Below are positions 5,465-54,068 of a stretch of DNA of 64,000 bases, in pieces. Both the position numbers and the translations under genes were made by a program. The DNA comes from Spirochaetia bacterium. Lineage in GTDB: Bacteria > Spirochaetota > Spirochaetia > WTKD01 > G963693115. Every line of letters begins with the position of its first letter. Within the stretch, counting starts at the first letter, position 1. The notes under the pieces are model-generated. The model ran no database searches. It saw nothing but the letters and a program-made list of their open reading frames with translations, and had not been told where the DNA came from. The stretch is taken from the NCBI GenBank assembly GCA_965226055.1, contig CBDDCA010000004.1, positions 96,001-160,000 on the forward strand. Direction: 5' to 3'.

Positions 5465-6184
5465 TTACTGGAAGTAGCTGTTTATAGTACTTTCAAATTC
5501 TGTATTTTTTGGGTTGAGAGGACTAGGGTGAGGAATATAGTGAAGTTCATTTATATTTAGTACATTTAATAAAGATTGTGCTATAGTATGTGAATATCTT
5601 CCTATTGCAAGTATCGTAGTAATGCCTAATATGTTACAATAGTTACGTAAGTGTTCTTTACACAATACTTCTACCTCTTTAATGCTCTTGTCTTTTCTCA
5701 GGAGTGTATGGTCAGGAGTGAGATTACTTGCAGTTTCTTTATTAAAAAAAGCTAGAGGACAAAAATTAAGAACAAATGCCTGTGCAAAAAAATCTTGAGG
5801 AGAAGGAAATAGTTTTTGAATACATCCCCAGACTTTTTCTCCACTTTTTTCTTCACGATGATATTGAAGGCCTTGTACTGGTCGTTTAGGGTGCATGTGT
5901 TCTGGTTGTTGTACAGTATATTGTAATTGAAGATAACGAGTAACTGCACTGATGTTGCCAAAAGGAATGCCTGTTTGTACCATGCCATGAGGGCCAGGAT
6001 TGATCCCTAATAACAGATATTTTTTTTGCTGTTTTTTTGTATGTGCAAAGTTTGAGACATATGCTTTCCATCCTTCCCATGCGTAATTGAACACATTGTA
6101 TACACACACAGTACTAGGATATGCGAGAGTGTCAAGTACATGGGAGAGTTCTTTGCTATGTTGTAATAATGTAGTAATGTGCAA
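5465..6184 (-). CDS. SMUG1-type (family 3) uracil-DNA glycosylase
   Basis: LLGINPGPHGMVQTGIPFG (SMUG1 motif 1), HPKRPVQG, NFCPL, HPSPLN (motif 2). Confidence 0.88.
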   Translation of the reverse strand: MHITTLLQHSKELSHVLDTLAYPSTVCVYNVFNYAWEGWKAYVSNFAHTKKQQKKYLLLGINPGPHGMVQTGIPFGNISAVTRYLQLQYTVQQPEHMHPKRPVQGLQYHREEKSGEKVWGCIQKLFPSPQDFFAQAFVLNFCPLAFFNKETASNLTPDHTLLRKDKSIKEVEVLCKEHLRNYCNILGITTILAIGRYSHTIAQSLLNVLNINELHYIPHPSPLNPKNTEFESTINSYFQ

Positions 6185-12767: not shown

Positions 12768-14822
12768 TTATAATAATGGAGCAATAATAAGAGCAATAAT
12801 CGTTATCAATTTAATAAGAATATTGAGTGATGGTCCTGCTGTATCTTTGAGTGGATCGCCTACTGTGTCACCTACCACTGAGGCTTTATGTGTCTCAGAT
12901 CCTTTCCCATTTTCTTTACGCTCTTCTATCATTTTTTTTGCGTTATCCCATGCACCGCCACTGTTTGCCATAAAAATAGCAAGGGTAATGCCACTTACCG
13001 TTGCTCCTACGATGAGTCCTGAGAGCATTTCTACGCCTCCAAAAAAACCAATAATAACAGGAATAACGATAGTGCCTAATCCAGGGAGTATCATTTCTTT
13101 AATGGCAGACTTAGTAGAAATATGAATACAACGATTATAATCAGGGGTATCATTTCCTTGTAATATACCTGGTTTTTCCTTAAACTGTCTACGTACTTCG
13201 TTTATCATAGAAGCAGCTGCTTTGCTTACTGCATCAATAGTAAGAGCACTAAAGGTATACGGTATCACTGCACCAATCATGAGTCCAATAAGTACTGGTA
13301 TTGAGGTTAAATCAATACTGTCTATTCCTACCGATTCTTTGAACGAAGTAAACAAAATAAATGCAGTAAGTGCTGCACTTCCAATAGCAAAGCCTTTTCC
13401 TATGGCAGCGGTGGTGTTTCCTACTGAATCAAGAGAATCAGTGATTTCGCGTACTTCTGGAGGATAGTTACTCATAACGGCTAATCCTCCAGCATTGTCA
13501 GATATAGGACCGTACGCATCAACTGCTAACTGAATGCCTATAGTGACTAGCATCCCTAATGCTGCAATGGCAATACCAAAAAGACCAGCAAAGCTGTAAC
13601 TAATTCCTACTGTAGCTGCAATGACTAAAATAGGGAGTAAGCAAGAAAACATTCCTACTCCTAATCCTGATATTATGTTTGTAGCATATCCACTTTCAGA
13701 TTGCTCTACTATTTTTTTTACTGGCTTTTTCCCAAATCCAGTATAATATTCAGTAAGTAATCCTATAGTAATACCACTTGCTAGCCCTAATATGGTGGAA
13801 ATATATATAGTATTTACTGTGAGTATGTTGCTGGAACCTTCAAAATCTTTTAATAGAAAACTTAGTATAGGATAGAACGATATTATTACAATACCTGCAG
13901 CGACAAAAGTTCCTGTATTTAATGCTCGTTGTGCAGATTTTCCCGGTTTTGTGCGTACACATAAAATACCAACGATAGAAGCAACGATTCCAATTACCAC
14001 TAGTATCAATGGGATAAATAAAAGCTGCATACGATATGCTTCTTCTACAGGACTTGCAAGTGCTAATATCATAGAGCCAATAATTGAGCCAATAAATGAT
14101 TCAAATAGATCAGCTCCCATGCCAGCAACATCTCCTACATTATCACCAACATTATCTGCTATTGTGGCAGGGTTTCGAGGATCATCTTCAGGAATATTTT
14201 TTTCTACTTTTCCTACTAAATCAGCACCAACATCAGCCGCTTTTGTAAAAATGCCTCCTCCTACACGAGCAAACAAAGCGATAGCACTTGCTCCCAGAGA
14301 AAAACCTGTGATAATAGGTAAATAATGCTCTTGTATGTTTACTATGGTTACACTCATTACTTGTTGTAATATAAAGAGTAAAATGAAAAGACCGAGAGTA
14401 GAAAGTCCTACTACACTCATTCCCATGATACTTCCTCCTGCAAATGCAATACGTAATGCAGGATTTATGCCTTTTTTTGCAGCCTCAGTGGTACGAGAGT
14501 TTGCGGCAGTAGCAACTTTCATGCCTATGTAGCCAGCTGTCCCCGAAGCAAATGCCCCCAATAGAAATGCAAATGCTTGAAATTTATTTATGCCAGTATT
14601 GAAAAAATAAAGCATAATAGCCATAATAAGTACAAAAGGAATCAAAACTTTGTATTCTTGATGTAGAAATGTAATTGCTCCGTTTGAGATATACGAGCTA
14701 ATTTTTTGTAGCTCAGCAGTTCCTTTATTTTGCTTAAAAATCCAATTACTACGAATAATAGCATATAGCAAAGCAATGGCACTTCCTATAAAAAGTGTCC
14801 AAGTGATAGTTGAAAAATTCAT
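12768..14822 (-). CDS. hppA: Membrane pyrophosphatase, probably K+-dependent Na+-translocating
   Basis: [41 protein letters not shown] (Ala = K+-dependent type), ADLFES (Glu at the Na+-PPase position), [10 protein letters not shown]. Confidence 0.95.
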
Positions 14823-15037: not shown

Positions 15038-18000
15038 TTAGTACTGTAGTAATGTTCCGCCAAAAGTAAATCCTCCACCAAAAGCAACAATAAGTATTTT
15101 TTTTCCTTTAAGATTACCTGTATTTTCTAATTCTTTTAAGCAAATAGGAATAGTGTTAGAAGAACTGTTTCCATGTTTATCAATGTTAATATAAAATTTA
15201 TCTAAAGGTAATTGTAAGCGTTTCGCTATTACGTTTATTATTTTTTGGTTTGCTTGATGAGGAATAATAATATCTATGTCTTCAAAAGATGTATTGTATG
15301 TATCACATACTTTTCTTGCAATATCACTTAAATGTTTAATTGCTAACTTGTATACTTCAAGTCCATTCATAGAAATAGAGCCGTTTTCAGGAACCATTAA
15401 CAATTCTGCAGGAGCTCCTACTGTTTGTAAAATAGGGTTGAATATTTCTACTGAATGCTCTGTTTTCTCTGTACTGATAATAGAGGCAGATGCAGCATCA
15501 GAAAATACAGGTGCAGTCTGATAATCTGATAAATCTATACGCTTAGAAAGAATTTCTCCTGTAATAAGCAAAAATTTCTTGTTAGGATGCTTATACACAT
15601 ATTGATACACATTGCTTAATGCAAATATAAAACCTGAACATGCAGCAGAGATATCGTATGCAAATATGTCAGGGGCTGTTTCAAAATTTCTTTGTTTTGT
15701 TAATTCATACTGTACCATTGTAGCAAGCGATGGTGTTTGATACTCATGAGTTCCTGTTGCACAAATAATCCCATCAATATCCTGCAAACTCAGCTTAGCT
15801 TTATCAAGCGTTTTTTGTGCTACCTCTGTACACATTGATACTAAATTTTGTTCATCAGAAACCCAGTGTCTTTGTTGTATTCCTGTACTCCCAAATATTT
15901 TTTCCTCTGTCCATTCGGGAGATAATGTTACTATTTCTTTGTTGCTTACTATTCTATTTCCTAGTACAGTATGTATATGTGATCCATAGACATGTACTGT
16001 TGTAGTAGTAGGAGTATTTACATGTGTAGGAGAAGAAAATGTAAGTGTAGGGTTACTTCTGTCTTCACGAGTGACAACTTTGACTACTATATCATCTGTT
16101 TTTATTCGTGCAATGGCTGTTCCAATAGAAACAGAGTCTCCTTCTTGATATAATAGCTCTATAATTTCACCATTGACACTAGATTTTACATCTACTGTCG
16201 ATTTATCGGCTTCGGCTTCAACTAAAAGTTCTCCTTCTTTTATAAAGTCACCAACTTTTTTATTCCACTGAATAACTACAAATACCTCATCTGATGGGCT
16301 TGATCCTATTGCTTCAATTTCTACTATCCCTGTATTTTTATCAGTGTCCTCTTCGGGCCAATGTATGCTTCCTTCTAACATACGTACTGCTTCATTGAGT
16401 ATTGAACGATACGAGGGGAGAACTTCTAACTGATTAGAAAAATTACATGGAACATAGGTATCTGAGCGTGTTATGCGTGAATATGCATACATATCCTCTG
16501 CTTTTTCACTGATGCTTGCTATAAGCTCCGAACTTACTGATACGAGCTTTGAGTCTTCATGTGTTACGAGTAATTTTCTTGTTTTTTGTACAGACTGCAG
16601 TACAGTATTGACATCAATGGGCTTTACTGTCCTTAAGTCTATTACTTCAGCTTGCTTTCCATAATTACTGAGCGTTTCGGCAACTTGCATACAAAGAGGA
16701 ACTGTATTGCCAAAAGCAACAAGAGTGATATCCTCTCCTTGTTTGATGATACTTGCTTTTCCTGGAGCAATTACTAAGGAACGAGCTCCAGATTTACTAA
16801 TGGTCTTATGTTGTACATTGAGCAAATTTTTTGGATAAAAATATACAGTAGGACGCTTTGATATGAATGCAGCATTAAGCAACCCTGCAGCATCTTTTGC
16901 ATTTGATGGTATACATACATCTATACCAGGAACATGAGCAGCAAAAGATTCCATAGAGGAAGCATGAAATGGTCCTAATCCTGGTTTGTATCCTCCACAG
17001 GATGCCATAATAATAAGAGGTATTTCCCAATTTCCTCCACTTCGCCAATACATAGATCCAAGTTCAGAATAAATTTGATTAAACGCTAGAGGAAAGAAAT
17101 CAGCAAATTGTAAAAATGCTACTGGTCTTTGTCCTGCTAATGCTCTTCCTATTGAGGCTCCTACTATAAGAGATTCACTTAAAGGGCTGTTGACTACGCG
17201 TTCTGAAAAAGTAGTTGATAATCCTTTTGTTAAACCAAATACATCTCCTTTTGGGTCCTCAATATCTTGTCCATAGAGAAACACAGATGGATCTTTTTCA
17301 AGCCAATGCCATAATACTTCTCGTATTGATTCAAGCATAACGAGCGAACCTTCTTCGTACTTTTCATCAACTGTAGGAGTGATAGAAAGCTCTTTTATAG
17401 CAGTGAACACTGGTGCTGGCTCGTTTTCACGTTGTGCTTGTATGGCAAGAGGCTTTAATGTAGCATACATTTCTTGTTGCATTGTATTGCATTTTTCTTG
17501 TGCTTCTTGTACATCTATATCTTCTAGTTCCACTAACAGATTTACAATAGGATCTGAATGCTGCCATATTTGTTCAATATCATCTTTATTACGATATATT
17601 TGTTGATTATCAGCGTTTGTATGATTACTTAGTCTTTCAACAGAGAATACTACAATTTTAGGAATGGAATTGCTACGAATTGACTGAATTGCTTGTTGGA
17701 ATACTTGATATGCCTTATGAGGATATCTTCCATCAATACGAATAATTTCGCATCCCATAAATTCTGATATCTCTTTGTTTCCCACTTGATAGAATGTTTT
17801 GCCTGCTGTAGGAGTGGAAATAGCAAATTTATTGTCTTCAACCACTACTAATACAGGAAGAGAGTCGCGTATAGATAATGCTAAAGACTCCAGAAATTCA
17901 CCTTCAAATGTTGTTCCCTCACCAGTAAGATTTACTACAATGGAATCACTTCCTTTTTGTTTGAGTGTGGCAGCAACTCCTACTGCATGAAGAGCGCTAT

Positions 18001-18343
18001 TGCCAACAGGTCCAGAAATGCTAAGCACATTCAATTCTGGAGCGCTCATATGAGCATTCATCTGTCGACCATGTGAGTGAGAGGTATCTTTGTTAAATAA
18101 TGCTCGAAAGTAGTCAAGCGGAGTGAGTCCTCTTGCTAACAATAGGGCTTTATCTCTATAATGACAATGAAGCCAATCATCTTTTTGAAGAAGTGGTGCT
18201 AATACGGAAATTCCTTCATGTCCTGCCCCAGAAACATGAAAAAAAGCTTCTCCTCTTGCAGTATATTCTTGTTCAATTTGATCTATGGCTCGTGCCATGA
18301 TCATAAAATTTAAATTTTCTGTAATAATGGGATTATTTTTCAT
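15038..18343 (-). CDS. Fusion: 2-oxoacid dehydrogenase E1alpha + E1beta + lipoyl domain + 3-oxoacyl-ACP synthase III (FabH)
   Basis: E1a: GAGHE, HYRD, TPP motif GEG...EDN, RLSNH. E1b: GQDI...GDVFG, SPLSE, QFADF, GPFH, EVIDLRT. Lipoyl domain: EAEADKSTVDV. KAS III: TGIQQR, DISAACSGF, IPHQAN, HGNSSS, FGGGFTFG. Confidence 0.9.
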   Translation of the reverse strand: MKNNPIITENLNFMIMARAIDQIEQEYTARGEAFFHVSGAGHEGISVLAPLLQKDDWLHCHYRDKALLLARGLTPLDYFRALFNKDTSHSHGRQMNAHMSAPELNVLSISGPVGNSALHAVGVAATLKQKGSDSIVVNLTGEGTTFEGEFLESLALSIRDSLPVLVVVEDNKFAISTPTAGKTFYQVGNKEISEFMGCEIIRIDGRYPHKAYQVFQQAIQSIRSNSIPKIVVFSVERLSNHTNADNQQIYRNKDDIEQIWQHSDPIVNLLVELEDIDVQEAQEKCNTMQQEMYATLKPLAIQAQRENEPAPVFTAIKELSITPTVDEKYEEGSLVMLESIREVLWHWLEKDPSVFLYGQDIEDPKGDVFGLTKGLSTTFSERVVNSPLSESLIVGASIGRALAGQRPVAFLQFADFFPLAFNQIYSELGSMYWRSGGNWEIPLIIMASCGGYKPGLGPFHASSMESFAAHVPGIDVCIPSNAKDAAGLLNAAFISKRPTVYFYPKNLLNVQHKTISKSGARSLVIAPGKASIIKQGEDITLVAFGNTVPLCMQVAETLSNYGKQAEVIDLRTVKPIDVNTVLQSVQKTRKLLVTHEDSKLVSVSSELIASISEKAEDMYAYSRITRSDTYVPCNFSNQLEVLPSYRSILNEAVRMLEGSIHWPEEDTDKNTGIVEIEAIGSSPSDEVFVVIQWNKKVGDFIKEGELLVEAEADKSTVDVKSSVNGEIIELLYQEGDSVSIGTAIARIKTDDIVVKVVTREDRSNPTLTFSSPTHVNTPTTTTVHVYGSHIHTVLGNRIVSNKEIVTLSPEWTEEKIFGSTGIQQRHWVSDEQNLVSMCTEVAQKTLDKAKLSLQDIDGIICATGTHEYQTPSLATMVQYELTKQRNFETAPDIFAYDISAACSGFIFALSNVYQYVYKHPNKKFLLITGEILSKRIDLSDYQTAPVFSDAASASIISTEKTEHSVEIFNPILQTVGAPAELLMVPENGSISMNGLEVYKLAIKHLSDIARKVCDTYNTSFEDIDIIIPHQANQKIINVIAKRLQLPLDKFYINIDKHGNSSSNTIPICLKELENTGNLKGKKILIVAFGGGFTFGGTLLQY

Positions 18344-18500
18344 CTATATACTTATTTTTATTATTTCAAAAATAGCTCATATAGTCAATATAAGGGAGAT
18401 GCAGAGATTACACATATATACTATATTGTTATATAATTAAATTAGAAAGATTGATTTAATCTTATTAAATGTATGAGCTATAAATATATGGAGGAATACT

Positions 18501-18908
18501 ATGGAAGATGAAGACAAAGATTTGATTGAAAAATTTGCTGAGAAATTAGTAGGTTTTGGAATTCCTGGAATTATATTTTTTTATGTAGCTGCAGGAACTA
18601 GGTTAACAGGAGCAGCTGCTACTACAGCAGCATTAGCTGCCATAGGGCCCTTTGGTATGATTGGTGGTATTGTTGTATTAGGAGTTATAGGAGTCTTGGC
18701 AACAGCTGGATATCGCACCATCATAAAAAAAGGATATAAAGACCGAGTTATAAGAAGATCTTTAATAATATATAAGGAAAAAAAGGAAAAAGAGACAGGC
18801 AAGGAAATAAAATGGGAAGAGATAGGAGAAGAAATAAAAAAAACCAAATTTATATCATCATCAAAAAGAGAACATCTTTTGAGGATAGTTGAAGGAGAGA
18901 GGCATTGA
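18501..18908 (+). CDS. Small membrane protein with a Gly/Ala-rich hydrophobic (glycine-zipper-like) segment
   Basis: RBS ggagg; GFGIPG...GAAATTAALAAIGPFGMIGGIVVLGVIG followed by a basic C-terminus. Confidence 0.7.
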   Translation: MEDEDKDLIEKFAEKLVGFGIPGIIFFYVAAGTRLTGAAATTAALAAIGPFGMIGGIVVLGVIGVLATAGYRTIIKKGYKDRVIRRSLIIYKEKKEKETGKEIKWEEIGEEIKKTKFISSSKREHLLRIVEGERH

Positions 18909-20286: not shown

Positions 20287-21501
20287 TGGAGTTTTACTAT
20301 TTCGTATGAACCCTTTTGATAAAATCAGTATACCGTAAAATTTCTATTATGCCAAGTGTGTAAAGTTCGTGTTGTAAGGAAAGTATCAACAATAAGAGGG
20401 CGCAGAGTAAGTACACAAGGATCCAGAGAGGGACTTTTTTCTTTGAGTAATACAGCAGGAGAGCCGTGTTTATAAGAGTTATAGCGTTGATGATTAAAGC
20501 TATATTGATACTCACTACTTAAGTGTAAAAAAGTACTGAGAGTAGGATTCTGCATTTTTGCATAGCATTCAGTTTCAATAAGTTTATGAGAAGCCTCGAC
20601 ATCAGAATTGTAAGTAGGAGAAGCATATGGGATAGTAGTATGGCGTGCCTCGTATGCCGCAAGAGAAGCAACAAAAGCAGACTGTTTTGTACTAAAAGCC
20701 CCTGAGATAAACTCAGAGCCATTATCAGTTTGAATAGTAATAGAGGAAGTATCAACGTGAAAAGAAGCAAGATGAGTAAGCAGATATTCAATAAACAAAG
20801 CGGTATGAGAAGAGCTTTTTTGAGTGGCAAAGCATATCCATAAAGCCCCCGTAGCGACATCACGTGCGGTGATTTGATACTTTGGGAGACAAAACTTGCG
20901 TAATGAGAAGTATAATTCGGGGATATCAGTAAGATATTTAATGTCTACTTGTATTTTGTGACAAAATTGAAGTAGTGTTTTCCATAGGCGTACTTCTTGG
21001 TTTCTTTGTGCTTTTTGCTTTTTACTTGTCTTATAATACCCCATCTTTCTTAGATACTTAATAATAGTTTTTATGGAATAAGGAATGGTATACTCTCGTT
21101 TTATATGAGAGGCAATACATCGTTGATGATAGTGCTGTAATGTTTCGCATATCTCTTTGAGTTTTAACTGATAGTAAAGTATCATAGTATCTGGATGCTC
21201 TACTGAAGCAGGACGTCTATCATAGAGCATAGCTTTAGGCTTCTCTTTGTATCTTTGCAACCACTTGCGTACGGTATTAGGAGATACATGAAAGATACGA
21301 GCAGTACTTTTGATACCGTGTTCTTTCGCAGAAAGTGCTATAGCTAAGCGTACCTTATGCAGTTCTTTTTGATTTCTTGTATTATAAAGTGTAGAGTATA
21401 TCATGTACTCACCCCCTTTTTTTTGTTTTTGTTTATTATTTCCATGATAGTATAATTACTATCATGGATTTTGGGGGTTCACACAAGATGGTAAAAGTAC
21501 A
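20287..21501 (-). mobile_element. Insertion sequence, IS481-like (about 1215 bp)
   Basis: Imperfect 27-bp terminal IRs: tggagttttactatttcgtatgaaccc at 20287 versus reverse complement tgtacttttaccatcttgtgtgaaccc ending at 21501 (21/27 match). Flanked by direct repeat ataaaagctatttt (20273-20286 and 21502-21515). Confidence 0.88.
20325..21404 (-). CDS. DDE transposase, IS481-like
   Basis: N-terminal HTH (ARIFHVSPNTVRKWLQRY); rve core QVDIK, RDVAT, QTDNGSEF, YNSDVEASHK. Confidence 0.9.
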   Translation of the reverse strand: MIYSTLYNTRNQKELHKVRLAIALSAKEHGIKSTARIFHVSPNTVRKWLQRYKEKPKAMLYDRRPASVEHPDTMILYYQLKLKEICETLQHYHQRCIASHIKREYTIPYSIKTIIKYLRKMGYYKTSKKQKAQRNQEVRLWKTLLQFCHKIQVDIKYLTDIPELYFSLRKFCLPKYQITARDVATGALWICFATQKSSSHTALFIEYLLTHLASFHVDTSSITIQTDNGSEFISGAFSTKQSAFVASLAAYEARHTTIPYASPTYNSDVEASHKLIETECYAKMQNPTLSTFLHLSSEYQYSFNHQRYNSYKHGSPAVLLKEKSPSLDPCVLTLRPLIVDTFLTTRTLHTWHNRNFTVY

Positions 21502-49475: not shown

Positions 49476-52400
49476 ATGATACATAGAGATCTACAAGCTG
49501 TGAAAATCGGGGGGGGGGGGGTACACTCTCGATATAAGCAAAACCTAACTATACTAGCAGTGCTAGCAATGACTACCCTCGTACTCGTAGGATGTGCAGA
49601 GAGTAGCAGTAGTTCCTCAGGCGGAGGGGGAACGCCAGTAACCCCGACACTCGCATCAGTGTCCAATGTGCAGATACAAGTAGCAGGCAACGATGGGATG
49701 CTCTCGTTACGCTGGCAAGCTCCCAGCGAAGCTACGCATGTAGTCGTAAAAGCTACATCAACGACACCAGCCCAGTCCATACAGGTGCGTGTTCCTGCAA
49801 TAGAATATCGTGCATTGTTTCAACAAAACAGACCCTACACCCTCAGAGGCTTGCACGCTACTACCGATTATACTGTAGAGATAGAAGCCCAAAAATCAGA
49901 CTCAGGCTCAGACACAGAAGTATCACCAAAAACAACCCGTTCTGTGACAACACTTAGCGATGAAACTGCACCGCAGGACACCTTTACACAGGTAGCAGTA
50001 GAATCAGCAACAAATGGCATAAAGATAACATGGGACAAAGCACTGCTCTCGTTAGGCAAGACAGACATAGCAGAAGCAATAATACAGGTGATAGAAAGCA
50101 CCACTAATGTAAAAAAAGAAGTAACAGTACAAGATGTAACACAAGGAGAAGTAACTATTGCTGTCCCTACTATAGACGGCATAAGCTATGATGTAACAGT
50201 AGTATACAGAGATAGCAATGGCAACGAAAGCACGGCAAAGCAAGCGCTCAGAGGCATAGTGCCATCAGCACTCTCACAAACAGTAACGCCACTTTCTGCA
50301 TCAGATCTTACAGTAACAGCAAACGATAAAAGCAATAGCCCAGCCGATGAAAGCCTGCTTATCAAGTGGGATGATAAAGATGACAGCTTTGACTTTTCAA
50401 ACAAAAGCCTCCAAGTACGCGTTATAGCAACCGCAACAAATACAGTAGTAGCAGAGGAGACAATAGACAAAGATACAAGTGCAACAAATGTCAGCGGAGC
50501 AAGTGCAGACAACCAAGAGTACGCCACTGTGTATGTAGCAAAAGATGGCATAGCACTCACAAAACTCTACGGCACGCTTACTTACAAAGTAGAAGTGTAT
50601 GTCTTTAAAAACGGAAAGTACTCCACTGCAGTGTCAAAAGAACAAGCAACAACCGACAAAAGCACAGAGCCTGTAAGCAATGTAAGTGCAGTAGGAGGAG
50701 CAACAAGCATAGTAGTAGGCTGGCAAGCCCCCGATGTACGAGACTACGCAGGAGTGAGTATAACAGCAACAGAAAAGGACAGCAGTACCGCGGCAAAGAC
50801 AGTAACAATAACAGAGAGAACAGTACGCAATACACAGATACCAGGCCTCAAAGCAACCACCGAGTATACAGTGGCAGTCGTGTCAATGGACAGTGCAGGC
50901 AACAAAGGAACAGAAGCAACAGCCACAGTAGCCACCGCAGCAGATAGCACCGCCCCCGATGCAGTAACAAGCATACAAGCAAGCTATCCTTTTGTATCAG
51001 CAGCAAAGATAGGAACACAGATAACATGGACAGCCCCCGATACAACAAAAGCCAATAACAAAGATATAAAAGAGTACAGCGTAAGCATAGCAGAAAAAGG
51101 CACAAGCACCACAGTACTGAGCGAGAAGAAAATACCCTATCCCACAACATCACTCTCTGTCGAAGAACTCACGCAAGGCAAAACATACACCATAACAATA
51201 CTCACGCTTGATTACTCAGAAAATAAAAGCACCCAAGCAACAAAAGACATAACCACCCCCAACTCACTCACAGCTCCTTCAGAGGATCTCTTTCAAAACA
51301 AGCCTACCCTAGACAAAACAGGAGCAATACAAATAAAAGCAACTTTTAAGCAAGCTCCAGGCATAGGGCGATACTACACCCTGCGTATGAAAGATGGAGC
51401 AAACTTAATAGCAGAAAAAAGCATAACAAACACAGCAACCACCATTAGCTTTGGGATAGCAGATGGCGTAGAAGTACCCAAGAGCCAAGCAAATGCCAAG
51501 AATTATCGCTTTGATTTTCTGCAAATAGCAAATAACAGAGTAAGCCCCGTAACCGCACTGAGTGATGCAGTAGCAGTATACGATAGCACCTCGACAGCAC
51601 CGCCCGCTCCCAAAGATGCAAAGCTCACCGTAGAGTCAGTAACACAAACAACTGCAAAAGCAGTCTATACATTTAGTGCAGGAGACATTACTGACACCAA
51701 CAAAGCACCCAGTGGAGCAAAACTCACGCAAGCACAAATACAATACAAAGTATACATAGCAGCAGGAGACCACAGCACAAAGACACTAGACGAAATAAAA
51801 GCCCTTGCAGGAGTACAAACAAGAGAGCTAGCAGGAGATAGCACTCCATTAAAAGCAACATTTATAGGAACAAAAGGAGCAGACTATACCGCAGGAGTAG
51901 AAGCGATAAACAGCCTCAATCCCGCCTATAGCATAGGAGCATCAGTAACAATAAAGAAAGCAACGCTTACCGCTCCCCCAAGCACACCAAAAGTAACAAC
52001 CTACACTAACAGTAATGCAGTGGTATTTGCAGTGCCTACAACAGGAAGCAACAGAGGGAAAAAAGTCATAACAGTACAGCTCAATGCCTCAGCTATAGCA
52101 GGAGTGAGCAAAGCAAATGGCAATGCCCTTGAAGCGACAGATCTTGCCTACTATGTGCTATACCTCAAGAAAGAAGATACCACAGGAAAGCCTGCCAGCG
52201 TATCAGCCTTGTGGGCAGTGGAAAAAAGTAGTGTAAAAGTAGCAAAGTATGTAAAAGCAACAGGAACAACTCAAGACACAATATCCATAGCAATAGTAGA
52301 CAGCACCAGTGGAAGCAATGCAGGAGCAACGCCCATAGAAACAGCAAAAGACTACTACATAGGAGTGAGGATAGTAAACACAACATCCCCTAATTACGAT

Positions 52401-54068
52401 GCAACAAATAGCGACAAGCTCTTTCCTGCAGGCTTTTACACCGATGTAACAGAAATAAAGGAAATCTATACTTCCAAAGCAGTAGCACCCAGCCAGTCAT
52501 TACTGACAGGAAAGCTAGTAGTATCACAGTCAACAAATACTACAGGCACAATAAAGCTGGTACTTACCGAGCTAAATACATTTACAGGAGCAAAAGACTA
52601 CGATGGCACAAGCATAACAGCAAATGACAAGCTAGTATACACAGTGTATGGCTTACAGAAAGACACTGACCCTAGCATAGCAGAAGTACTTGCAGGCAGA
52701 AAGATAAACCTAGGCAGTGCAACAAGCGGAGTGTACACAGTACCAGCCCTTGCCAGTTTAGGCTTGTCATCAGACACAGCACCAGTAGTAGCAATAAAAG
52801 GAGCGACAAAGTATTACTTTGTGGTAGAAGTAGCAGTAAAAACAGATACAAGCAAGAAAGTAGCATCCTCAACAGTGGCAAGCGTAACAACCGCATCGCA
52901 GGCGACTGCCCCCGCAGAAGTAACAAGCATACAAACAAGAGTAGCCCAGACAGGTATGAGAGTATCGTGGACAGCTCCCAGCCTCAGTGCAAGCCACAAA
53001 GCAAATACAGGCGATGCCCTAACAGTAGCACAAGTATCGTACAAAGTATACAAAGTAGCCAAAAGTGGCAGTGCAAGAAGCGTAACAGCGATAAAAAATG
53101 CAGACTCAAGCCCCACAACAGTAGCAGCAGGAACAACAAACACTACCCTGACAGGATTGACAAATGGAACGACCTACGAAATAGTAGTACAAGCAGTAAA
53201 CAGCACCGATCCTACAAAAGCATCGACAGGAGAACGCCACGAGTTTGAAGTAAGCGCAATATCTATAGGAAATACTAGCGTAGTATCAGCAGAAGTAGGC
53301 AAAACACCAGCAATAAATACTACAAGAGTACTTACCAGCACACCCAGTGGCAATGCCTTTACCTGTGATGCCAATATACAAGAGGCAGATGCAGAGAAAA
53401 TCAAAAAAGAAACAGGCCTTACAGTATCGTTTGATCAGAGTAGCAAAACAGTTACCATAACAGGCATAGCAAATAAGTCCAATATACGAGACACAGCTAT
53501 TACTGAGTATAGCTATGATGTAGCACAGTGTACCCTTACTGCATCAAAGAAAAAAGTACCAGCCACTATCGTTATACAGACAGATATAAGAACAGCACCA
53601 TCAGGAAAAGCAGAGGCCTATTACAGACCAACAACAAAATCAGCACTACAAACTATTATCAGTGAAGAAAAGACAAGGCAAGCTACAGGAGGGAAGAGTA
53701 GCAACCCTAGCCCCAACCTCAACATGATAGACACCAGTGCTATTACTGATATGAAGGGTTTATTTTTTGGTGATAGAACTTTTAATGGAGACATAACACA
53801 GTGGAATACAAGTAGCGTAATGAGTATGAATGGTATGTTCTCTGGAACTATAAAGTTTAATCAAAATATAAGCGGGTGGGATGTCGGAAATGTTACTAAT
53901 GCATACAGTATATTTAATGTTGCCACGGCATTTAATCAAGATTTATCATCGTGGAGAATGTGTAAAATTAAACCAAACTCAGCTGATATTCACTCTATGT
54001 TTTTATTAGCACCTTTAACAGCAGATAAGTACCCAAAATTTAAGGGATCTCCACAGTGTAGCACATAG
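49476..54068 (+). CDS. Large surface lipoprotein with fibronectin type III repeats and a C-terminal DUF285/BspA-like repeat domain
   Basis: RBS aaggagg; lipobox LVLVGC then a Ser/Gly tether; FN3 motifs (W.AP...Y...GL...TEYTV); C-terminal DTSAITDMKGLF, FNGDITQWNTSSV.SM..MF, FNQNISGWDV, FNQDLSSW. Confidence 0.88.
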   Translation: MIHRDLQAVKIGGGGVHSRYKQNLTILAVLAMTTLVLVGCAESSSSSSGGGGTPVTPTLASVSNVQIQVAGNDGMLSLRWQAPSEATHVVVKATSTTPAQSIQVRVPAIEYRALFQQNRPYTLRGLHATTDYTVEIEAQKSDSGSDTEVSPKTTRSVTTLSDETAPQDTFTQVAVESATNGIKITWDKALLSLGKTDIAEAIIQVIESTTNVKKEVTVQDVTQGEVTIAVPTIDGISYDVTVVYRDSNGNESTAKQALRGIVPSALSQTVTPLSASDLTVTANDKSNSPADESLLIKWDDKDDSFDFSNKSLQVRVIATATNTVVAEETIDKDTSATNVSGASADNQEYATVYVAKDGIALTKLYGTLTYKVEVYVFKNGKYSTAVSKEQATTDKSTEPVSNVSAVGGATSIVVGWQAPDVRDYAGVSITATEKDSSTAAKTVTITERTVRNTQIPGLKATTEYTVAVVSMDSAGNKGTEATATVATAADSTAPDAVTSIQASYPFVSAAKIGTQITWTAPDTTKANNKDIKEYSVSIAEKGTSTTVLSEKKIPYPTTSLSVEELTQGKTYTITILTLDYSENKSTQATKDITTPNSLTAPSEDLFQNKPTLDKTGAIQIKATFKQAPGIGRYYTLRMKDGANLIAEKSITNTATTISFGIADGVEVPKSQANAKNYRFDFLQIANNRVSPVTALSDAVAVYDSTSTAPPAPKDAKLTVESVTQTTAKAVYTFSAGDITDTNKAPSGAKLTQAQIQYKVYIAAGDHSTKTLDEIKALAGVQTRELAGDSTPLKATFIGTKGADYTAGVEAINSLNPAYSIGASVTIKKATLTAPPSTPKVTTYTNSNAVVFAVPTTGSNRGKKVITVQLNASAIAGVSKANGNALEATDLAYYVLYLKKEDTTGKPASVSALWAVEKSSVKVAKYVKATGTTQDTISIAIVDSTSGSNAGATPIETAKDYYIGVRIVNTTSPNYDATNSDKLFPAGFYTDVTEIKEIYTSKAVAPSQSLLTGKLVVSQSTNTTGTIKLVLTELNTFTGAKDYDGTSITANDKLVYTVYGLQKDTDPSIAEVLAGRKINLGSATSGVYTVPALASLGLSSDTAPVVAIKGATKYYFVVEVAVKTDTSKKVASSTVASVTTASQATAPAEVTSIQTRVAQTGMRVSWTAPSLSASHKANTGDALTVAQVSYKVYKVAKSGSARSVTAIKNADSSPTTVAAGTTNTTLTGLTNGTTYEIVVQAVNSTDPTKASTGERHEFEVSAISIGNTSVVSAEVGKTPAINTTRVLTSTPSGNAFTCDANIQEADAEKIKKETGLTVSFDQSSKTVTITGIANKSNIRDTAITEYSYDVAQCTLTASKKKVPATIVIQTDIRTAPSGKAEAYYRPTTKSALQTIISEEKTRQATGGKSSNPSPNLNMIDTSAITDMKGLFFGDRTFNGDITQWNTSSVMSMNGMFSGTIKFNQNISGWDVGNVTNAYSIFNVATAFNQDLSSWRMCKIKPNSADIHSMFLLAPLTADKYPKFKGSPQCST
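49509..49521 (+). repeat. G13 homopolymer (simple sequence repeat) in the leader of the lipoprotein gene
   Basis: atc-ggggggggggggg-tacac; currently in frame. Confidence 0.9.

Follow-up and report, generated by a model that had tools for sequence, protein, structure and literature searches.

One gene for an E1alpha-E1beta-lipoyl-FabH fusion: a candidate coenzyme A-independent primer synthase for fatty-acid synthesis

In the textbook account, type II fatty-acid synthesis starts from an acyl-coenzyme A (acyl-CoA) primer. Can the primer also be made and delivered without CoA, by a single polypeptide? The question is raised by one gene in a stretch of 64,000 nucleotides from a Spirochaetia bacterium (assembly GCA_965226055.1, contig CBDDCA010000004.1, positions 96,001 to 160,000), which we call the window and in which positions are counted from its first letter. 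On one chain, this gene encodes both parts of a 2-oxoacid dehydrogenase E1 component, a lipoyl domain and a FabH-type beta-ketoacyl synthase III (KAS III) of the kind that condenses primers with malonyl-acyl carrier protein (malonyl-ACP). An earlier reading of the DNA, made from the letters alone and called here the sequence-only reading, had proposed that the KAS III domain replaces the E2 acyltransferase core, the swinging lipoyl arm handing its acyl group directly to the KAS cysteine. We give a probability of roughly 0.55 to the gene encoding a complete primer synthase of type II fatty-acid synthesis, one that has no need of an E2 core and does not pass through acyl-CoA. The lines that favour such a hand-off, independent of E2 and of CoA, are a remodelled adenine site in the KAS domain, the absence of an E2 core from three of 50 genomes that carry the fusion, and the single origin of the fused KAS domains.

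The translation of the gene contains no internal stop, and its matches to six curated Pfam families (Table 1) follow one another in the order of the expected reaction path. Pfam, at E <= 0.01, finds in the protein neither the E2 core (2-oxoacid_dh, PF00198) nor the E3-binding domain (E3_binding, PF02817). Set beside an ordinary E2 component, the fusion has a lipoyl domain with its acceptor lysine, and it has neither a peripheral-subunit-binding domain nor a catalytic core with the DHR motif. The sequence-only reading had described one uninterrupted open reading frame (ORF) with an E1alpha-E1beta-lipoyl-KAS III order and no E2 core, marked by the motifs GEG...DN, EADK (16213-16202), AACSG, PHQAN and GNSS and by a Thr/Pro linker; the ORF list, the translation and the Pfam matches bear out all of this, and show that the E3-binding domain is missing too. 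The architecture is far beyond chance, because six curated domains stand in reaction-path order and the same order recurs in all 120 of the best homologues. These 120 matches, obtained from a search of 5.8 billion proteins, all have the same six Pfam families, are 1089-1189 amino acids (aa) long and range from 97% to 44% identity, the one from the culturable Spirochaeta thermophila standing at 46%; they are filed under names such as 'beta-ketoacyl-ACP synthase 3', 'thiamine pyrophosphate-dependent enzyme' and '2-oxoisovalerate dehydrogenase E1 component'.

That the fusion 'may occur in databases', as the sequence-only reading put it, proves to be an understatement: the family is large and spread over many phyla. 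In contigs taken from one genome per species, at least 561 relatives are encoded among the 593 pattern matches listed. A search for the architecture across phyla, which the same reading had recommended, finds it in at least eight of them among the best 80 loci: Spirochaetota, Planctomycetota, Verrucomicrobiota, Nitrospirota, Sumerlaeota, Armatimonadota, Cyanobacteria and Proteobacteria. The sources of these 80 loci are Spirochaetia, Alkalispirochaeta, Pirellulaceae and other Planctomycetota, Verrucomicrobiota/Kiritimatiellales/Pontiella, Nitrospirales, Sumerlaeota and Armatimonadia, together with the cyanobacterium Xenococcus, Thiotrichales, Francisellaceae and a betaproteobacterium; the closest of them are Spirochaetia with 56% identity and genomes of 1.7-2.6 Mb. 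In 79 of the 80, the ORF is intact and matches the query over more than 800 residues. All 25 members of a diverse set contain the six domains, and none of the 25 has a Pfam match to an E2 core or E3-binding domain. When the query is limited to the junction of E1beta, lipoyl and KAS parts, 21 of the best 150 cluster representatives (50% identity) are proteins of 1106-1161 aa.

An assembly artefact is ruled out, given that all 120 top homologues share the architecture and that 79 of 80 loci drawn from other assemblies, among them several single complete chromosomes, do so too. A tree of KAS domains groups 91 fusions as a single clade, with support of 0.97, and leaves 31 free FabHs outside it; this points to one invention of the fused KAS domain, retained across phyla. 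In one genome, G298, the fusion homologue (locus L095) is part of a longer open frame, of about 1500 aa (ORF 1501, open frame 1532), against 1080-1210 aa in the others.

Could the E1 part load a lipoyl group? Conservation was read from an alignment of 121 homologues, in which G141, G143, N171, H241, E390, H460, K714, C902, H1029, N1032 and N1059 are invariant. When the protein is aligned to the Geobacillus pyruvate enzyme E1p, H241 corresponds to H271alpha (1w85_A), E390 to E59beta and H460 to H128beta (1w85_B). In the Geobacillus enzyme, according to excerpts of PMC2663715, E59beta activates thiamine diphosphate (ThDP), H128beta is the likely acid/base in the reductive acetylation of lipoate, and H271alpha assists. 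As the equivalents of these three residues are invariant, the E1 part appears to retain what is needed for loading a lipoyl group, beyond decarboxylation alone.

The choice of substrate is less sharply drawn. By the marks of a heterotetrameric E1, the fusion has the domains, the ThDP motif and the residues of activation and of lipoate acylation; it does not reach an equivalog-level assignment as a pyruvate or a branched-chain enzyme, each of the E1 equivalog models being missed by a wide margin (TIGR03181, 162.4 vs 411.35; NF008854, 215.2 vs 454; NF006667, 182.6 vs 321). By Foldseek, the E1beta part resembles the Thermus branched-chain E1beta 1um9_B with a template-modelling (TM) score of 0.95, and no solved chain spans more than the E1 part of the fusion. 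The sequence-only reading had given branched-chain 2-oxoacids as an example of the substrate: a 2-oxoacid stands, and a branched one is no better supported than pyruvate, as the E1beta part scores much alike against solved branched-chain and pyruvate chains (1um9_B, 185 bits; 1w85_B, 169.1 bits), neither being closer.

The lipoyl domain keeps its acceptor in the entire family: all 191 unique sequences have a lysine at that site, recognised in 171 of them by pattern and in 20 by eye (EA[TSA]K or ETTK). On its E1 side, the tether between W662, at the end of E1beta, and G680, at the start of the lipoyl domain, measures 14-18 residues in all 121 aligned sequences. On its other side stands a motif at residues 755-769, with consensus K-P-x-T-R-E-x-P-G-x-P-[VI]-I, that is conserved (in the 121 sequences, T758 117, E760 121, G763 118, P765 116, I767 114), and that is followed by a linker of variable length, 25-62 residues from I767 to G795. 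A full-length AlphaFold2 model has a mean predicted local distance difference test (pLDDT) score of 90.8 and a predicted TM score of 0.70; values of pLDDT below 50 are confined to residues 772-780, and the post-lipoyl motif is ordered, with blocks at 74 and 87 and a strand at 766-769. In a model of residues 668-1101, from which E1 is omitted, the motif falls to 65/58/59, residues 756-760 go below 50 and the strand disappears. Because its order is lost once E1 is left out, the motif probably docks back on the E1 part, as a short anchor that would be a minimal stand-in for the peripheral-subunit-binding domain; this comparison is between the confidence values of two models built from different alignments, of 121 and 55 sequences. 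In such an arrangement, E1 would keep the lipoyl domain close by, as a short loop, with the KAS domain hanging on the flexible linker.

Assuming that the parts work together, a reaction path can be proposed. The fused E1alpha-E1beta, probably a homodimer that mimics an alpha2beta2 E1, would decarboxylate a 2-oxoacid, either pyruvate or a branched-chain one, on ThDP (step 1), and would then reductively acylate K714, the lipoyl-lysine of the domain that follows it on the chain (step 2). The S-acyl-dihydrolipoyl arm would enter the FabH tunnel in place of the pantetheine arm of acyl-CoA, and transthioesterification would move the acyl group to C902 (step 3); H1029 and N1059 would drive decarboxylative condensation with malonyl-ACP to yield 3-ketoacyl-ACP (step 4), to be elongated by the ordinary FabG/FabZ/FabI/FabF cycle. 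Finally, the free dihydrolipoyl dehydrogenase (E3) of the cell would reoxidise the dihydrolipoyl arm (step 5). Steps 1, 2 and 4 follow from the chemistry of the respective families; we infer steps 3 and 5, the direct transfer and the reoxidation of the arm. The claim taken in its most specific form, that the lipoyl arm passes its load directly to the cysteine of a condensing enzyme, that one polypeptide turns 2-oxoacid and malonyl-ACP into 3-ketoacyl-ACP without CoA, and that the post-lipoyl motif is a minimal E1 anchor, stands in our view at even odds.

The path requires that the last domain be a genuine FabH-type enzyme. It matches NF006829 (PRK09352, the FabH subfamily of NCBIfam) over residues 792-1100 with 264.8 bits, above the cut-off of 249, and falls short of the narrower TIGR00747 (227.8 vs 292.1). 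Its model aligns on E. coli FabH 9ka6_A with a Z-score of 43.7 and a root-mean-square deviation (rmsd) of 1.8 A over 309 of 318 residues, Foldseek TM scores of 0.89-0.94 place it in the FabH-type thiolase fold, and a phmmer comparison with 2ebd gives an E-value of 1.5e-53. Residues C902, H1029 and N1059 correspond to C112, H244 and N274 of E. coli FabH, a triad kept in all 191 unique family sequences.

These facts bear on a first alternative, in which the KAS III domain would be an acyltransferase and not a condensing enzyme, moving the acyl group from the lipoyl arm through C902 to holo-ACP (or CoA) and releasing acyl-ACP or acyl-CoA. FabH enzymes do have an acyl-CoA:ACP transacylase side activity, which speaks for it. 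So does the closest described system that unloads a lipoyl arm onto a carrier, QncN/QncL/QncM, which ends in acyl-ACP in the parts of PMC6335953 that treat it. However, the His and Asn of the triad serve the decarboxylation of malonyl groups and are dispensable for transacylation, yet no member of the family has lost them, and it is the entire domain that superposes on FabH. We regard this alternative as unlikely.

Another line of evidence comes from the CoA site, where positions are numbered as in E. coli FabH and where the 191 unique fusions were compared with the free FabHs of carrier genomes, 29 in number, as one of 30 loci had no match. In CoA-bound E. coli FabH, the adenine is sandwiched between Trp32 and Arg151 and bonded to Thr28, and the phosphopantetheine is held by Arg36, Asn209 and Asn246, in the numbering of PMC4606726 and as given in excerpts of that paper. 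At the position of Arg151, the free FabHs have Arg in 25 cases and Lys in three out of 29; the fusions have Arg in one case and Lys in four, that is, neither in 186 of 191, and the protein of the window has Tyr. At the position of Trp32, two of three alignments, one of them profile against profile, show Asp, Lys, Ala or Glu, the Trp of the family falling on Thr28. The protein of the window has Lys there in the same two alignments and is aligned to Trp in the third, and the Nitrospirales copy has Trp at neither the Thr28 nor the Trp32 position. The stacking pair Trp32/Arg151 that would hold the adenine of an acyl-CoA was not found in the fused KAS domain; the argument drawn from the CoA site rests on Arg151, as the displacement of Trp32 appears in two alignments out of three.

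The ACP side and the catalytic centre are another matter. Position 249, which we take to be the ACP-docking residue of FabH, is Arg in 175 fusions and Lys in 14 (189 of 191), and Arg in 28 of the 29 free FabHs. The triad Cys112/His244/Asn274 is as complete in the fusions as in the free enzymes (Cys 28, one being truncated; His 29; Asn 29). Judging from these alignments, the nucleotide end of the CoA site has been rebuilt in the whole clade, with the ACP side and the catalytic centre kept.

A further question is whether the fusion needs an E2. We sampled 50 of the 80 carrier genomes; completeness figures are absent, so that absences among them are provisional. Three carriers, G273, G280 and G298, are missing the E2 core, one of them (G273) being a single complete chromosome of 3.84 Mb. 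None of the three has a strong E1_dh match other than the fusion, whose key residues are all intact; in each, dihydrolipoyl dehydrogenase is present (508.4, 483.8 and 469.7 bits vs a cut-off of 408.8, the match in G280 having one stop), and LipA scores above its curated cut-off. The other Biotin_lipoyl domains of G273 that exceed the cut-off belong to proteins of 159 and 648 aa, whose sizes suggest biotin carriers. Because intact fusions are found in these three of 50 carriers, we favour the view, as provisional as the absences themselves, that E2 is dispensable for the fusion. In two further carriers, G255 and G266, no KAS III other than the fusion was found and FabF-type synthases are present, which links the fusion to the initiation of fatty-acid synthesis.

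Several observations weigh against a primer synthase that needs neither E2 nor CoA. At least one E2 core (2-oxoacid_dh) is encoded by 47 of the 50 carriers, so that a route assisted by E2 is possible in most of them, as it is in the genome of the window; and a free FabH-type protein is found in 48 of the 50, which means that the fusion is usually not the only starter. The E3 and LipA of the E2-less genomes could serve glycine cleavage. The third alignment of the CoA site puts the conserved Trp of the family on Trp32, by way of a four-residue gap, and the residues that bind the phosphate arm of pantetheine are kept, Arg36 in 160 and Asn247 in all of the 191 fusions. This last retention decides nothing, because ACP needs both residues too. 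Lastly, no more than 14-18 residues tether the lipoyl domain to E1, and the motif that follows it is anchored, so that the domain may lack the freedom to reach two active sites; and in a protein that has no E3-binding domain, E3 would have to act without docking.

Some of these points are those that would be expected if the fusion were channelled and CoA-dependent: an E2 acting in trans would make acyl-CoA, the fused KAS III would use it, and the fusion would bring nothing more than proximity. The E2 cores of most carriers, the canonical E2 and E3 of the genome of the window and the largely kept pantetheine contacts Arg36 and Asn247 all agree with it. It does not account for the intact fusions in three genomes without an E2 core, one of them a complete chromosome, nor for the loss of Arg151 in 186 of 191 fusions when the free FabHs of the same genomes keep it. 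Moreover, the fusion lacks a peripheral-subunit-binding domain through which it and an E2 could be kept together, and no E2 gene appears among the conserved neighbours of 79 loci. We consider this explanation improbable.

The free FabHs also invite another version of the story, in which the chemistry is the one proposed for the primer synthase and the product is a special lipid or polyketide-like compound, with a particular branched or functionalised chain, and not the bulk of membrane fatty acids. An ordinary FabH is kept by nearly all carriers (48/50), and the fusion has a patchy distribution: in the phylum of the window, it was found in six of 251 sampled genomes, the window's own included and the sixth checked by Pfam. 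Position 87, which limits the primer pocket in E. coli FabH and is Thr in the FabH of M. tuberculosis, is Thr in 172 of the 191 fusions, against Phe in 15 of the 29 free FabHs. A fusion with Thr87 beside a free FabH of the Phe87 type in the same genome would fit a division of labour, in which larger or branched primers go to the fusion. However, the surroundings of the gene do not resemble those of a special pathway. The commonest neighbour families over 79 loci are aconitase (23, of which 22 immediately upstream), a phosphoenolpyruvate (PEP)-utilising enzyme (17), NeuB (15), histidine kinase (14) and MsrB (13), beside housekeeping genes, and a short-chain dehydrogenase follows the fusion in only five; these recurrent neighbours are clade-bound synteny, and the conserved neighbours over the 79 loci include no E2 gene, no ACP gene and no biosynthetic cluster. 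The two genomes in which the fusion is the only KAS III found also argue against a special product, which we hold to be distinctly improbable. As for an inactive relic or a moonlighting scaffold with at least one non-catalytic domain, it is very hard to reconcile with an uninterrupted ORF in the window and in 79 of 80 loci, with catalytic residues of all four parts that are invariant in 121 of 121 sequences, and with a model whose mean pLDDT is 90.8.

We return to a CoA-independent primer synthase and to the genome that holds the window (G000, 89% complete), in which the sequence-only reading had advised looking for standalone fabH, E2, E3 and lipoylation genes. All of them are there. A free FabH (376 bits) has Trp32, Arg151 and Phe87; a canonical operon encodes E1alpha, E1beta, E2 and E3, the latter, Lpd, at 548.6 bits; LipA (377.9 bits) is accompanied by two proteins of the BPL_LplA_LipB family, of the lipoate/biotin-ligase type; and fabD/fabG/fabF, acpP and one Aminotran_4 aminotransferase (class IV, IlvE-type) complete the set. 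As this genome has a free FabH, a canonical E1/E2/E3 operon and LipA, the fusion is therefore an additional route there: it adds to the ordinary one and does not replace it.

Some details of these loci deserve mention. The free FabH gene (G000:C6:918013-918999; L015:6014-7000) lies beside genes for an epimerase dependent on nicotinamide adenine dinucleotide (NAD), an aminotransferase and FtsX/ABC (Lol-like) proteins, outside the fabD-fabG-fabF cluster, which is on contig C1. The E1alpha of the canonical operon (G000:C5:559534-560582; L014:7535-8583) is split into overlapping ORFs of 197 and 156 aa, each matching half of E1_dh; this is a frameshift or an assembly error. At G000:C6:296919-300282 (L013:3920-7283), a protein of 269 aa, P0123, consists of an E2 core alone, with neither lipoyl nor E3-binding domain and with DSR in place of DHR, and may be a degenerate scaffold-type E2. 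Its gene is directly upstream of that of P0122, a second fused E1alpha-beta of 815 aa that is 23% identical to the E1 part of the fusion. We considered P0123 as the missing E2 partner of the fusion, which is unlikely in view of its DSR motif and of its position next to another E1, P0122.

Table 1. Position of the fusion gene, of its parts and of a promoter candidate in the window, with Pfam matches of the protein; strand and residue numbers where given
Feature	Position in window	Strand	Residues	Details
Whole gene, E1alpha-E1beta-lipoyl-KAS III fusion (P0001)	15038..18343	-	1101 aa	ATG start; stop codon within span
E1_dh (Pfam)			13-310	131.3 bits
Transket_pyr (Pfam)			338-509	82.1 bits
Transketolase_C (Pfam)			528-639	98.4 bits
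Biotin_lipoyl (Pfam)			690-747	52.4 bits
ACP_syn_III (Pfam)			896-969	68.4 bits
ACP_syn_III_C (Pfam)			1016-1101	89.5 bits
E1alpha part	17414..18307	-	13-310	ThDP motif G141-E-G143...D170-N171; H241
E1beta part	16427..17332	-	338-639	E390, H460
Lipoyl domain	16097..16330	-	672-749	beta-strands in AlphaFold2 model; Pfam 690-747
Codon of acceptor lysine K714 (EADK)	16202..16204	-	714	EADK = residues 711-714, window 16213-16202
Post-lipoyl motif	16037..16081	-	755-769	
Flexible Thr/Pro linker	15992..16036	-	770-784	Thr/Pro stretch about 772-784
KAS III (FabH-type) domain	15041..15991	-	785-1101	
KAS III triad codon, Cys	15638-15640	-	C902	
KAS III triad codon, His	15257-15259	-	H1029	
KAS III triad codon, Asn	15167-15169	-	N1059	
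KAS motifs			900-904; 1028-1032; 1058-1061	AACSG; PHQAN; GNSS (from translation)
Promoter-like site	18360..18388	-		TTGACT-17-AATAAT, TG before -10; ends 17 bases 5' of ATG; consensus scan 10/12 matches

In the window itself, the gene stands alone. The sequence-only reading had called it solitary, with no E2 or E3 nearby, and the neighbours agree: within 10 kb on either side there is no gene for E2 or E3, and the genes that are found encode an H+-pyrophosphatase (12768-14822, - strand), a WD40 protein, an ABC transporter, a pentapeptide-repeat protein, an M16 peptidase and others. The divergent neighbour of the fusion is an ORF of 135 aa without a Pfam family (18501-18908, + strand), and two genes away lies a transposase-like ORF of 359 aa (20325-21404, - strand) with helix-turn-helix domains and a weak match to the integrase core (rve). 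The promoter-like site of Table 1 is a promoter candidate by consensus match, only a lead: the region contains 22 such sites, against 19.9 +/- 4.8 expected from shuffled sequence, that is, no excess. Farther out, an ORF of 239 aa (5465-6184, - strand) has no Pfam family, and an ORF of 1530 aa (49476-54068, + strand), which combines fibronectin type III repeats with a DUF285 domain at its C-terminus, explains a block with G+C content of 0.42-0.44 and AT skew of 0.34-0.44, vs a background near 0.33; Rfam finds no ribosomal RNA in that block.

A search of the full-text literature found no paper on this fusion architecture; subscription journals and supplements were outside its reach, and an earlier publication is possible. 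PMC8204192, which we considered as a report on the fusion, was set aside, its relevant passages discussing only a missing FabH. Whatever its chemistry, the family matters for annotation: in many uncultured lineages, gene annotation and metabolic models misname the fusion as a plain 'beta-ketoacyl-ACP synthase 3' or as '2-oxoisovalerate dehydrogenase E1'. If the fusion is the primer synthase that we propose, it would add a third starting route for bacterial fatty-acid synthesis to those of FabH with acyl-CoA and of malonyl-ACP decarboxylase. Chain initiation would be uncoupled from the CoA pool, and membrane composition would be tied directly to the supply of amino acids and 2-oxoacids. A lipoyl arm would also, for the first time, be found to serve a condensing enzyme, which would extend the partners of such arms beyond E1, E2, E3 and the proteins of glycine cleavage. 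In 1988, Oku and Kaneda reportedly observed that 2-oxoacids are better primers of branched-chain fatty-acid synthesis than acyl-CoAs are: the fusion would give a molecular basis to that observation. From a practical point of view, a one-gene module leading from 2-oxoacid to primer would offer a compact means of producing branched or odd-chain fatty acids.

One of the closest known systems is the branched-chain fatty-acid synthesis of Bacillus and Staphylococcus, where a branched-chain 2-oxoacid (or pyruvate) dehydrogenase complex feeds FabH by way of acyl-CoA. Like that pair, the fusion has an E1 of the heterotetramer type with the ThDP motif and the equivalents of E59beta, H128beta and H271alpha, a lipoyl domain, and a KAS III with its triad; unlike it, the fusion is a single chain with no E2 core and no E3-binding domain, Arg151 is lost, and the acyl-CoA step is predicted to be skipped. 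With the FabHs of E. coli (1HN9/9KA6), A. aeolicus (2EBD) and S. aureus (1ZOW), the fused domain shares the fold, the triad, Asn247 of the oxyanion region and Arg or Lys at position 249. It differs from them in being fused behind E1 and lipoyl parts, in the replacement of Arg151 and, in most sequences, of Phe87 by Thr, in forming a separate clade and in scoring below the cut-off of TIGR00747. Within the same genome, P0122 resembles the fusion in carrying E1_dh, Transket_pyr and Transketolase_C on one chain; in contrast, it has neither lipoyl nor KAS domain, is paired with the lipoyl-less E2-like core of P0123, and is only 23% identical to the fused E1.

The closest precedent for the proposed hand-off comes from secondary metabolism. 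In QncN/QncL/QncM, and in SclQ1-4, which supply glycolicacyl-ACP for tetrahydroisoquinoline compounds and scleric acid, a ThDP-dependent enzyme of the transketolase/E1 type works with a lipoyl domain and sends its acyl group into a carrier-protein pathway and not to CoA, as the portions of PMC6335953 on these systems have it. QncL is described there as a pyrimidine-binding domain followed by a transketolase C-terminal domain, a lipoyl domain and an acyltransferase: it is thus an E2-type acyltransferase that unloads the lipoyl arm, onto a dedicated ACP, within a secondary-metabolite cluster. In the fusion, by contrast, there is no ACP gene or conserved cluster in the surroundings of 79 loci, the domain placed to unload the arm is a condensing enzyme of the thiolase fold, and the product would be a 3-ketoacyl-ACP.

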